Source: an uncultured Micavibrio sp. (lineage in GTDB: Bacteria; Pseudomonadota; Alphaproteobacteria; Micavibrionales; UBA1664). Taken from it: a DNA stretch of 64,000 nt. This document shows, piece by piece, positions 48,678-51,990 of the stretch. Within the stretch, counting starts at the first letter, position 1. Every line of letters begins with the position of its first letter. A program made the position numbers and the translations under genes. The DNA is taken from positions 21,365 through 85,364 of the forward strand of contig CAZHEE010000005.1 of the NCBI GenBank assembly GCA_964531715.1, given 5' to 3'. A model generated the notes under the pieces. That model did no database searches and had not been told where the DNA came from. It saw nothing but the letters and a program-made list of their open reading frames with translations.

Positions 48678-49496
48678 TTATAGCTCGGCTTGAAAATGTA
48701 AGGTTTTCATTAGAATAGCGATTGTGAGCATTTGGTATGCCGGGTTGCTATGTATATTTTTCAAGCTTAACGCTTCGGTACAAATTATATTGTCATAAAC
48801 TCTACCGCTTGTTTTTTCAAGAAGGGCTTTGACGAGTAATCCGCTTTGCCCCTCTAGAATAATAGGCATGCCTTTTAAGCTTCCTGCAATTGCTGCGCCG
48901 AGCATGGCGGCATGATCCAACCCGCAATGTTGGGTCATGAAAGATTCAAACCATTCGTTTCCCCCGTCTTGAGCGGGGGTCTGTTTTAATGAATCCCTGC
49001 TCGGGGGCGGGGATGACGTAAAATTAACAGATGACGATAAAGCTTCCAAAGCATCTTTTGCAGCGCCCTCAACCCCTTGCCCGAAGGCGCAAGCAGCGAA
49101 AAGCTGAGTCCCTTCCTCAATCGCCATCATGCCGTAACTGGCGGCGAGAGCCAAATCATCCTCGCTTTTAGGGGCGTGGTTCTCAGGCTGAAGCTCAAAT
49201 ATCTGCAAATCTGTATCAAGCATACTTGCCAATTGGTTAAGCGAGCCTTTTCCGTCCTGACAGCTTTCAACAAAAGCCTGCCCGTCAAAGCCATCCATTG
49301 CATCATACCCTGCCCAGTAAAGCGCACAGCGATTAAGCTGAAACCCTTTGCTCATATCAAATTGGCCTTTAAAATGATCGAGCCAGCCCGAGAGACACGC
49401 TATCGGTTCACGCTTATCATGATGATAGGGCGCGTAATCGGGCAGGGCAGATATGATATCAGCGATATCTTTGAATTTTGGCTGTGCCTTACTCAT
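48678..49496 (-). CDS. Divergent CobT/DMB-phosphoribosyltransferase-like protein
   Basis: Weak by-eye resemblance to CobT blocks (ALYWAGYD...; FAACAFGQGVEGAA...; AAMLGAAIAGSLKGMPIILEG). It is short (272 aa) and lacks several canonical residues. Confidence 0.45.
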   Translation of the reverse strand: MSKAQPKFKDIADIISALPDYAPYHHDKREPIACLSGWLDHFKGQFDMSKGFQLNRCALYWAGYDAMDGFDGQAFVESCQDGKGSLNQLASMLDTDLQIFELQPENHAPKSEDDLALAASYGMMAIEEGTQLFAACAFGQGVEGAAKDALEALSSSVNFTSSPPPSRDSLKQTPAQDGGNEWFESFMTQHCGLDHAAMLGAAIAGSLKGMPIILEGQSGLLVKALLEKTSGRVYDNIICTEALSLKNIHSNPAYQMLTIAILMKTLHFQAEL

Positions 49497-49704: not shown

Positions 49705-49995
49705 ATGTCACGCCGTTGTGTAGTTACTGATAAAGCCGTTGTTTCGGGGAATAATGTTTCCCACGCCCATAATAAAACACGCCGTAAATTTATGCCGAAT
49801 TTGACAGACACACGCGTGTTCAGCGAAACACTCGGACGCTTTTTCAAAATTAAGGTCACTGCGGCAGGCTTGCGTACGCTTGAACATAAAGGCGGTTTTG
49901 ACGCATGGTTATTGGATACGTCACCAAGTAAGCTTCCGAATGCCGAGCTGAAAAAAGTTCGCAAGGAAATTCAGTCGAAAAAAGACGCGGCTTAA
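49705..49995 (+). CDS. rpmB: 50S ribosomal protein L28
   Basis: MSRRCVVTDKAVVSGNNVSHAHNKTRRKFMPNL. Confidence 0.95.
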   Translation: MSRRCVVTDKAVVSGNNVSHAHNKTRRKFMPNLTDTRVFSETLGRFFKIKVTAAGLRTLEHKGGFDAWLLDTSPSKLPNAELKKVRKEIQSKKDAA

Positions 49996-50103: not shown

Positions 50104-51300
50104 ATGCTTTCAAAAGACCTTTACCCTAATCACGATTTTATTATTGAGTATAAAGACCCGAAATCGCGCGCGCGGATAGGGACTCTTAAAACACCGCACG
50201 GCTCGATCCAGACACCGAATTATATTTTTTGCGGCACAAAGGCCGCCTTGCGATGTATGACATCAAAACAGGCAGCGGAGGCGGGCGCGGATATTCACCT
50301 CGTAAACACATACCACCTGGTCGTTCAACCGGGCGCGGATATTGTTGAGAAACTGGGCGGTGCGCATGGCATGACTGGCTGGACAGGCCCGATGATGACC
50401 GATAGCGGCGGGTTTCAGATTTTTGCCTTTGGCGAGGGGACTGTCGCCGATGAAATTAAAGGTCGGCGCAAAGACAATCCAAAAGACAGACTCCTCCTTG
50501 ATATTACTGAGGAAGGCGCGGTTTTTAAATCTTATATCAATGGCGAGAAATTCACTCTCACCCCTGAAAGCTCGATAGACGCACAACGTAAAATCGGCGC
50601 GGATCTGATTTATTGTCTGGATGAATGCCCGCCTTATCACCTTGATCGCGATTATATGTCAAAATCTATGGAGATGTCGCATCGTTGGGAGGATCGCTCA
50701 TTTGAAGAATTCAAGCGCGGCATGGATGGCTCTCAAGCTTTATACGGTATAGTGCAAGGCGGCGTATATGAGGATTTGCGCCGTGAATCCTGCGACTATG
50801 TCTCATCAAGAGATTTTTTCGGGACAGCGATTGGTGGCTCTCTCGGTGTAACGGTTGACCAGATTTATGATCAGGTGGTGAGCTGGTGCATGCCTTATAT
50901 CCCTGAAGAACGCCCTGTACATTTGCTGGGCATTGGTTCAATGCGCGATATTTTTGAAGGGGTACGCATGGGGATTGATACATTCGATTGTGTGACCCCA
51001 ACACGGATTGCTCGCCATGGCTGGGCACTCATGAAAGGGGCGGAGAATGAACGCATGAATTTGCGGAACGGCAAATATCGTGATGACCCAACACCTTTGG
51101 ATGAAACGCAAGACCATTATTACTCTCAAACATTCTCACGCGGATATCTGCATCATTTGATTAAGAGCCATGAGCCACTGGCGATGCATATTCTCTCGGT
51201 GCATAATATTGCAACGATGACGCGTCTTATGCGTGATGTGAGGGATGCAATCCGCGAAGGTACGCTTGATGCGCTGGAAAAAGAATGGTTGGTGGGTTAG
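50104..51300 (+). CDS. tgt: tRNA-guanine transglycosylase family protein (divergent Tgt)
   Basis: TDSGGFQ (nucleophile Asp), LDEC, GIVQGG, LLGIGSMRD, FDCVTPTR and SRGYLHHL are all alignable to E. coli/Z. mobilis Tgt. The Zn CxCxxC motif and the GGLAVGE motif are substituted (see findings). Confidence 0.8.
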   Translation: MLSKDLYPNHDFIIEYKDPKSRARIGTLKTPHGSIQTPNYIFCGTKAALRCMTSKQAAEAGADIHLVNTYHLVVQPGADIVEKLGGAHGMTGWTGPMMTDSGGFQIFAFGEGTVADEIKGRRKDNPKDRLLLDITEEGAVFKSYINGEKFTLTPESSIDAQRKIGADLIYCLDECPPYHLDRDYMSKSMEMSHRWEDRSFEEFKRGMDGSQALYGIVQGGVYEDLRRESCDYVSSRDFFGTAIGGSLGVTVDQIYDQVVSWCMPYIPEERPVHLLGIGSMRDIFEGVRMGIDTFDCVTPTRIARHGWALMKGAENERMNLRNGKYRDDPTPLDETQDHYYSQTFSRGYLHHLIKSHEPLAMHILSVHNIATMTRLMRDVRDAIREGTLDALEKEWLVG

Positions 51301-51360
51301 ATTTAGTACCTTACTAAACTTTGCGTGACATTGTGTGGCTTTGCGTTAAAAATAAGTTTC

Positions 51361-51990
51361 ATGAAAAACACATTCATATCCACTCATTCTATTATTAAAG
51401 ACCGTTTAACACTTTTACGGGACAAGAACACTAATTTTCAAACATTCAGAACGGCTTTAAATGATATTGCGACTATTCTCGGTATTGAGGCCACGCGGGA
51501 CTTACCGTTAGAGCCGCTTCACATTGAAACCCCATTGGCAAGCCATCAAGGTCACGCCTTGGCTTCGCGCCCTCTTATCATACCGATTTTACGTGCCGGG
51601 CTTGCGCTATCCGAAAGTTTGAACCGCATCCTACCCCATGCCGATACGGGGCATATCGGGCTATATCGTGATGAGGAAACGCACAAACCTGTTGAATATC
51701 TGGTGAAACTCCCTAGTGAGCTAAACCGACCGATTTTTATCTGTGACCCGATGCTCGCCACAGGGCATAGCATGATAAAAACGCTGGATATCCTGTGCAA
51801 TAAAGGCGCGAAACCTCAAAATGTTATAATTGTAACCCTTCTTTGCGCACCTGAAGGTTTGGAAGAGCTTCGCAAATTCTATCCTGATAGTCCTGTTTAT
51901 ACTGCCGCGATCGACAGCCATTTAAATGAGAACGCCTATATTGTTCCTGGGTTAGGCGATGCAGGCGACCGCTATTTCGGGACGGTCTAA
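51361..51990 (+). CDS. upp: Uracil phosphoribosyltransferase
   Basis: IIPILRAGL..., CDPMLATGHS and YIVPGLGDAGDRYFGT. The start is at ATG 51361. Confidence 0.95.
   Translation: MKNTFISTHSIIKDRLTLLRDKNTNFQTFRTALNDIATILGIEATRDLPLEPLHIETPLASHQGHALASRPLIIPILRAGLALSESLNRILPHADTGHIGLYRDEETHKPVEYLVKLPSELNRPIFICDPMLATGHSMIKTLDILCNKGAKPQNVIIVTLLCAPEGLEELRKFYPDSPVYTAAIDSHLNENAYIVPGLGDAGDRYFGTV

Follow-up and report, generated by a model that had tools for sequence, protein, structure and literature searches.

An orphan tRNA-guanine transglycosylase with a remodelled pocket loop and without the zinc cysteines in an uncultured Micavibrio sp.

The window analysed here, a stretch of 64,000 nucleotides of contig CAZHEE010000005.1 (positions 21,365 to 85,364 of the forward strand; assembly GCA_964531715.1) from an uncultured Micavibrio sp. 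of the alphaproteobacterial order Micavibrionales, carries a tgt gene whose product has lost the cysteines of the structural zinc site and has an altered substrate pocket. The product is a genuine tRNA-guanine transglycosylase (Tgt) of a known functional kind, namely a salvage-type enzyme in a genome that has tgt and no other gene of the queuosine pathway, and it belongs to an alphaproteobacterial subfamily that is termed type B here. Tgt is a standard example of a zinc enzyme and also a target for drugs. On balance, the type-B enzyme of the window appears to be functional and zinc-independent, and to insert queuine or another ready-made base in one step. Under this scheme, a homodimer would act at position 34 of the four tRNAs with GUN anticodons (Asn, Asp, His and Tyr) and would exchange the base through the usual covalent intermediate at Asp295. 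Type B would depend neither on QueA nor on the synthesis of preQ1; the base, with queuine as the best candidate, would be imported ready-made by a route other than YhhQ or QueT and would yield queuosine-containing tRNA directly, as in Chlamydia trachomatis and eukaryotes. Ordinary side chains would take the place of the zinc site in a C-terminal subdomain whose folding and dimerisation are retained, and this replacement would have no bearing on the choice of substrate.

The product matches the Pfam family PF01702 (TGT) at an E value of 2.1e-114 and scores 396.3 bits against the NCBIfam Tgt equivalog TIGR00430, above the curated cut-off of 306.75, which bears out the first-pass annotation of this open reading frame (ORF) as a Tgt homologue, made from the sequence alone. 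It resembles the canonical enzymes of Zymomonas mobilis and Escherichia coli (EC 2.4.2.29) in fold, in sequence (about 36-40% identity), in its catalytic equivalents, in a predicted homodimer formed through the C-terminal subdomain and in its GUN tRNA targets. According to HMMER and MAFFT alignments to the solved E. coli and Z. mobilis enzymes, the retained catalytic and base-binding residues are Asp100, Asp173, Cys175, Gln218, Gly245 and Asp295, equivalent to Asp102, Asp156, Cys158, Gln203, Gly230 and Asp280 of Z. mobilis, respectively; both catalytic aspartates, Asp100 and Asp295, are therefore in place, as had been read by eye. Alignment A1 shows no variation at Asp100, Ser101, Gly102 and Gly103, nor at any catalytic residue. 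The enzyme is probably active.

All seven genomes of the genus have an intact reading frame, as do 59 of the 61 genomes of the order. Full-length orthologues from the six remaining genomes of the genus share 87-92% identity with the protein, and non-synonymous differences per site within the genus (pN, 0.07-0.10) are far fewer than synonymous ones (pS, 0.73-0.77, with synonymous sites saturated); tgt is under strong purifying selection. An AlphaFold2 model built from a 56-row alignment has a predicted local distance difference test score (pLDDT) of 91.5 and a predicted template modelling score (pTM) of 0.90. The former zinc region is modelled at pLDDT 94-98, and the only poorly defined part is an insert at residues 108-130 (pLDDT 46-63). 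Foldseek superposes the model on the Z. mobilis enzyme with a template modelling score of 0.93-0.95 (normalised by target length) and a root-mean-square deviation of 1.3-1.5 Å, and the predicted fold matches the (beta/alpha)8 barrel with a C-terminal subdomain that is expected of Tgt. That genome reduction has left the gene as a relic of the queuosine pathway, decaying or catalytically idle, could be suspected from the small genome (1.57 Mb), the disappearance of every other queuosine gene and the loss of the structural zinc site, but it is very improbable in view of the intact frames, the low pN relative to pS, the invariant catalytic residues and the confidently predicted fold.

The homodimer prediction scored 0.73 versus 0.02 for the best of three controls, a mark attained by 20 of 30 proteins solved as one-chain pairs and by one of 23 solved as single chains. 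The dimer runs share at least 95% of their contacts, with a partner pLDDT of at least 85, and the predicted interface comprises residues 326-363 and 46-92, with the former zinc knuckle lying within it. As Tgt homodimers have been solved, the score may reflect their recall by the predictor, and the prediction indicates likeness only.

The substrate pocket differs from that of canonical Tgt at several points. Residues 244-250 read GGSLGVT in place of GGLAVGE, and the position of Z. mobilis Glu235 holds no glutamate but is aligned with Val249; the canonical arrangement, in which Glu235 holds the Leu231/Ala232 peptide switch, was not found. Glu235 is thought to drive the guanine/preQ1 peptide switch in Tgt (PMC3660597). 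In addition, Tyr258 and Met260 have given way to His and Leu, and the TDSGGFQ motif is followed by an insert of about 22 residues that is not present in the E. coli, Z. mobilis or human enzymes and whose positions G110, G112, A115, E117, K119 and G120 each reach a conservation of 90% or more in alignment A1. The first-pass annotation was right about the loss of the GGLAVGE motif and of its glutamate; its pairing of the two blocks at equal length does not stand, since MAFFT, HMMER and the profile-profile comparison with hhalign agree on a one-residue gap in the loop, which pairs Leu247 with Val233, Gly248 with Gly234 and Val249 with Glu235. The glycine that it saw at the position of Val233, a eukaryote-like state, arises from its ungapped alignment alone.

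The eukaryotic enzyme QTRT1 (human and mouse; PDB 6H45 and 7NQ4), whose structures score 209-212 bits against the Micavibrio protein, inserts a salvaged base directly and without downstream enzymes, which is the mode proposed for type B. Unlike the Micavibrio protein, however, QTRT1 has zinc, Glu235, a full-length GGLSGGE loop, Val for Cys158 and a partner, QTRT2, whereas the Micavibrio genome has one TGT gene. The combination that marks the eukaryotic type (Val for Cys158, Gly for Val233 and a QTRT2 partner) is not seen here, and a eukaryote-like pocket, one of the grounds on which salvage was first suggested, falls away because Gly for Val233 was not reproduced and the second determinant, Val for Cys158, is absent.

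No queA was detected in the host genome, which is 99.99% complete, also not by tblastn, and the same genome yielded no real match to queC, queD, queF, queG or queH, neither of the importers YhhQ and QueT, and no second, canonical tgt. The downstream partners QueA, QueG and QueH are thus all three missing, and a full preQ1 pathway, which had been left as a possibility, is not encoded; the lack of QueA, QueG and the preQ1 pathway distinguishes this genome from the hosts of canonical Tgt. As there is no other queuosine gene in the genome, the inserted base is most likely scavenged ready-made. The four GUN tRNA genes are present in one copy each (Asn-GTT, Asp-GTC, His-GTG and Tyr-GTA).

Chlamydia trachomatis, with the queuine-salvaging TGT of Yuan et al. 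2019 (as cited in PMC11570991), provides a parallel: it likewise has tgt but no queA, queG/H or queC-F, and its pocket loop is altered at the side of the 7-substituent. According to published work, direct queuine salvage is recognised by a tgt that is accompanied by a transporter and by no other gene of the pathway, as established for C. trachomatis (PMC11570991). Most type-B relatives share this pairing of tgt with YhhQ/QPTR, whereas the Micavibrio genome and most of its order are without YhhQ. The Micavibrio enzyme further differs from the C. trachomatis type in the loss of its zinc site and in having GGSLG rather than GG[LS][AS]G, a comparison made with the published motif and not with the C. 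trachomatis sequence. Two IU-type nucleoside hydrolases are encoded in the host genome; they are compatible with the release of queuine from queuosine but not specific to it. Homologues of the enzyme at 60-70% identity are named Micavibrio in their source records, and together with the hydrolases these names fit a lifestyle of nucleoside scavenging without being proof of a queuine route. For Qng1 (PF10343), the control of the search itself matched no genome.

The altered pocket, rather than the zinc loss, is the real specificity signal, and it is common to a large, little-described clade. All 118 close homologues, with or without the zinc site, share GG[SC]LGx, a loop that lacks the Glu and falls one residue short of GGLAVGE, as well as HLLGIG where canonical Tgt has YLMGVG, and the conserved insert. 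Across a sample of 251 alphaproteobacterial species genomes with a completeness of 90% or more, Tgt matches form two groups, with 67 type-B sequences at 46-63% identity to the Micavibrio enzyme and about 170 canonical ones at 38-45%, and tgt is almost always present in a single copy per genome. One of the 67 is a fragment, and the 66 genomes with a full-length type-B gene were followed up; two genomes of the sample (G092 and G266) are unpublished, both having canonical Tgt and queA; they enter only the tallies of Tgt type and of queA, and their removal changes nothing. The type-B clade has 100% support and a long stem in a 125-sequence tree for which the zinc and pocket columns had been left out of the alignment. 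The queA gene occurs in only five of the 66 type-B genomes but in about 165 of the 170 canonical ones, and queC in three of the 66 (63 without). YhhQ/QPTR, on the other hand, is encoded in 52 of the 66, directly beside tgt in more than 30. No queG or queF above the cut-off was found in five type-B genomes of 4-6 Mb. The proposal of a queuine-salvaging or otherwise re-specialised enzyme therefore fits both genome and subfamily, because tgt is the only queuosine gene and the subfamily is hardly ever accompanied by queA or queC and usually stands beside yhhQ; the two features originally given as reasons for it, the zinc loss and the eukaryote-like pocket, do not justify it.

Within type B, the residue at position 247 appears to covary with the presence of QueA: Met or Phe is found in 16 of 19 queA-positive genomes and in one of 96 queA-negative ones (G078, which has queC), the other 95 having Leu, and this suggests that the pocket tracks the pathway. 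The salvage concept as such is already known, since Anaplasmataceae and Holosporales are listed as tgt-only in Table S2 of a published survey (PMC11570991). The text of that survey states that all complete alphaproteobacterial genomes surveyed except Bartonella have queA and queG (PMC11570991); the species-level sample does not bear this out, as queA is missing from 61 of the 66 type-B genomes. In a broader database scan, the matches listed were mostly canonical Tgt, with a few names (Micavibrio, Paracaedibacteraceae and Rhodospirillales).

Several side observations concern this subfamily and its transporter. The two-gene module of yhhQ/QPTR and type-B tgt, conserved in many Alphaproteobacteria, is exemplified by G254:C1:2064608-2067390 and G159:C1:3682838-3684573; it also occurs in genomes of 4-6 Mb without queA or queC, which conflicts with the survey's naming of Bartonella as the sole exception in the class. 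The queA-positive type-B lineages among relatives from the order (G008-G012, G016, G017, G022, G023, G028, G029, G034, G039, G046 and G050) have GG[SYA][MF]G[KN], not GG[SC]LGx. YhhQ/QPTR has expanded in two genomes of the same order as the window, with eight copies in G015 (1.4 Mb) and four in G022 (1.6 Mb). One type-B tgt (G278:C1:450047-451216) carries a single in-frame TAG, for which a pseudogene, a sequencing error and recoding are all possible.

The identity of the inserted base is argued from three points, namely which queuosine genes the genome has, the association of type B with yhhQ, and the residue at position 247 that appears to track queA; together they indicate that it is probably queuine. 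A number of observations weigh against queuine. The formal alignments have Leu, not Gly, at Val233, which makes a bulky residue probable there, and a bulky residue at this position of the Z. mobilis enzyme hinders queuine binding (PMC3660597). At the equivalent of Cys158 the enzyme retains Cys, in contrast to the Val of eukaryotic queuine enzymes. The GGSLG loop agrees with the published queuine-user motif GG[LS][AS]G (PMC11570991) at four of five positions, with Leu for Ala/Ser, in a register that depends on gap placement. The host has no known importer for any queuosine precursor, and most of the queA-less families of the order show the same set of missing queuosine genes, most of them being without YhhQ as well. 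The correlation between pocket and pathway comprises only three phylogenetically independent contrasts, of which two to three agree and none is opposed, and it is not significant. Lastly, tgt-only bacteria such as Bartonella and Pelagibacter may use preQ1 and leave it unprocessed (PMC11570991). With regard to the importer, three further transporter families have recently been shown to carry queuosine precursors, and missing importers are an acknowledged gap (PMC11130926).

Accommodating some of these points, a Tgt that salvages preQ1 or preQ0 would place the imported precursor at G34, where it would stay unprocessed as QueA and QueG are absent. It has precedents in the unprocessed preQ1 proposed for the two tgt-only lineages just named (PMC11570991), and both Cys175 (equivalent to Cys158) and the Leu that the aligners place at Val233 are of the bacterial, preQ1-using type. 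Bartonella henselae in particular is, like the Micavibrio host, an alphaproteobacterium without queA and queG that relies on salvage, and preQ1 is reportedly a substrate of its Tgt alongside queuine (PMC11570991). However, the Bartonella Tgt lies outside the type-B clade as defined, and Bartonella and Pelagibacter keep the canonical GGLAVG loop, whereas that of the Micavibrio enzyme is shorter and has no Glu235. The Met or Phe at position 247 in queA-positive type-B lineages suggests that enzymes with Leu247 use another base, and the genome has no YhhQ or QueT by which preQ1 would be imported. Salvage of preQ1 or preQ0 is accordingly regarded as rather unlikely, and insertion of queuine or a comparable ready-made base remains the preferred explanation.

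The zinc site provides a second, separate result. The zinc stretch of E. coli Tgt (PDB 10fa) aligns without gaps in HMMER to LDETQDHYYSQTFSRGYLHHL (residues 332-352), with LDETQDHYYS as the ungapped partner of the knuckle, and Gln336, His338 and Ser341 replace the three cysteines, in agreement with the replacement by Q, H and S read at first pass. No cysteine reappears at the site in the formal alignment: three of the four ligands are replaced, and only His367 is retained, a residue kept in all type-B sequences examined except that of G085 (Tyr). The site probably binds no metal. A structural zinc site of the form CxCxxC...H is not universal in the family, as the same loss is found in other bona fide Tgt. 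No description of a natural zinc-free bacterial Tgt was found in the literature, and reviews treat the zinc subdomain as part of the Tgt fold and of the dimer interface (PMC5699537).

Loss of the site is recurrent. Among the best 120 database homologues, the full ligand set of three cysteines and one histidine (CCCH) is kept in 31 of the 118 full-length sequences, and the others have a variety of replacements (for instance L-I-S, Q-H-S, S-L-S and N-I-S). At least 13 changes of zinc state are needed on the 125-sequence tree, six of them forced by well-supported branches. The Tgt of the cultured Micavibrio aeruginosavorus (P0072) is both zinc-free and type B. Among canonical Tgt, the cysteine triad is missing in 10 of 81 of the diverse matches listed. 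For instance, the cultured Nitrobacter vulgaris DSM 10236 (L186:1377-3544) has a GGLAVGE enzyme with all four ligands replaced (S, W, S and I) and queA directly upstream. Parvibaculum and other Parvibaculaceae have a canonical GGLAVGE enzyme whose zinc site is lost in all of the best 120 matches, including the cultured P. sedimenti, the four ligand positions in Parvibaculum spp. being S, C, A and N. Canonical Tgt without the site also occurs in metagenome-assembled genomes (MAGs) of Bacteroidales, in a MAG labelled Saprospira grandis and in a Magasanikbacteria MAG. These enzymes resemble the Micavibrio one in that the cysteine triad is replaced and the catalytic residues are kept; they differ in that most have the canonical GGLAVGE loop and several an adjacent queA, whereas the Micavibrio enzyme joins zinc loss to the type-B pocket and an orphan tgt.

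Because zinc loss is also found in canonical GGLAVGE enzymes that work with QueA, as in N. vulgaris and Parvibaculum, it says nothing about the substrate. The same holds within the order of the window, where families f7 and f8 keep CCCH but have no queA, while genus g3 and families f3 and f4 have queA though the cysteines are lost. The loss was therefore rejected as a sign of new function, since it occurs with canonical pockets and adjacent queA and tracks queA neither in the order nor on the tree; it is functionally neutral and not linked to the pocket change. The first-pass annotation had used it as a ground for the salvage reading, a use that does not survive its occurrence in queA-linked canonical Tgt and the retention of CCCH in many queA-less relatives.

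The zinc loss would be expected to mark a change of function if the enzyme were a re-specialised transglycosylase acting with a different 7-deazaguanine or on another RNA or DNA target. Such a function would suit the altered pocket loop, the substitutions at Tyr258 and Met260, the conserved insert behind the catalytic motif and the absence from the genome of any known precursor importer or partner enzyme. Yet zinc loss, found beside queA in canonical Tgt, is no marker, the protein scores above the cut-off of the Tgt equivalog, the dimer interface is predicted to be kept, this is the only Tgt of a genome with all four GUN tRNAs, and synteny is conserved with rpmB rather than with DNA-modification genes. 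Re-specialisation is thus improbable compared with salvage by an ordinary tRNA-directed Tgt.

The existence of natural zinc-free Tgt, some of it in cultured bacteria, indicates that the metal is dispensable; such enzymes offer templates for how the subdomain holds together without it, and N. vulgaris DSM 10236 is a cultured organism from which a zinc-free Tgt could be taken for testing. In type B, for its part, the absence of Glu235 goes together with a lack of QueA in many Alphaproteobacteria. Should queuine be the base that type B uses, its direct salvage would be far commoner in free-living bacteria than has been assumed, and the missing importer of the order would become a defined search problem. 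A bolder and quite speculative extension is that type B is an undescribed Tgt lineage (with its shorter, Glu235-less loop, HLLGIG and a basic insert of 22 residues) that has replaced the whole queuosine pathway by one-step salvage in about a quarter of the sampled alphaproteobacterial species, including free-living ones with genomes of 4-6 Mb, and that the importer-less, Micavibrio-like predators either obtain queuine from the nucleosides of digested prey or insert a base that is not yet identified.

The coordinates of the gene, its motifs and its neighbours are collected in Table 1. The order rpmB-tgt is kept at 28 of 30 loci from the same order, and no transporter was found near tgt, either in the window or in the loci of order relatives compared for synteny. 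A gene lying between tgt and upp in three families had been considered as a transporter candidate and was rejected, as it encodes a GGDEF-domain protein; it is present in families f5, f7 and f8 (L028:497-1483 and equivalents) and not at this spot in the genus of the window.

Table 1. Features of the tgt locus in the window, with residue numbers of the Tgt protein.
Feature	Position in window	Strand	Remarks
rpmB (ribosomal protein L28)	49705..49995	+	directly upstream of tgt
tgt ORF	50104..51300	+	398 aa plus stop; sole TGT-family gene of the genome
TDSGGFQ motif, residues 99-105	50398..50418	+	holds Asp100; Phe104 at the Tyr106 position, as in E. coli
Insert peculiar to the subfamily (about 22 residues), residues 108-130, ..GEGTVADEIKGRRKDNPKDRL	50425..50493	+	gap in PDB alignments
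LDEC, residues 172-175	50617..50628	+	Asp173 = Asp156; Cys175 = Cys158, bacterial-type residue, not eukaryotic Val
Remodelled pocket loop GGSLGVTVDQ, residues 244-253	50833..50862	+	replaces GGLAVGEPKAD; one residue shorter than in canonical Tgt
HLLGIG, residues 273-278	50920..50937	+	replaces YLMGVG (His for Tyr258, Leu for Met260); subfamily signature
FDCV, residues 294-297	50983..50994	+	Asp295 equivalent to the nucleophile Asp280
Former zinc knuckle QDHYYS, residues 336-341	51109..51126	+	Gln336, His338 and Ser341 at E. coli Cys302, Cys304 and Cys307
His367 in SVHN	51202..51204	+	retained fourth zinc ligand (E. coli His333), by alignment
upp (uracil phosphoribosyltransferase)	51325..51990	+	begins 25 nt downstream of tgt, same strand

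Upstream of rpmB, an ORF of 272 aa at 48678-49496 on the minus strand of the window has no Pfam or NCBIfam match at E values up to 0.001. Elsewhere (L208:850-2454, on G000:C4), the interval between rplA and rplJ encodes an IU nucleoside hydrolase and a deaminase of the cytidine/deoxycytidylate type; this pair and the tgt that follows rpmB are both cases of salvage genes placed within rows of ribosomal-protein genes.

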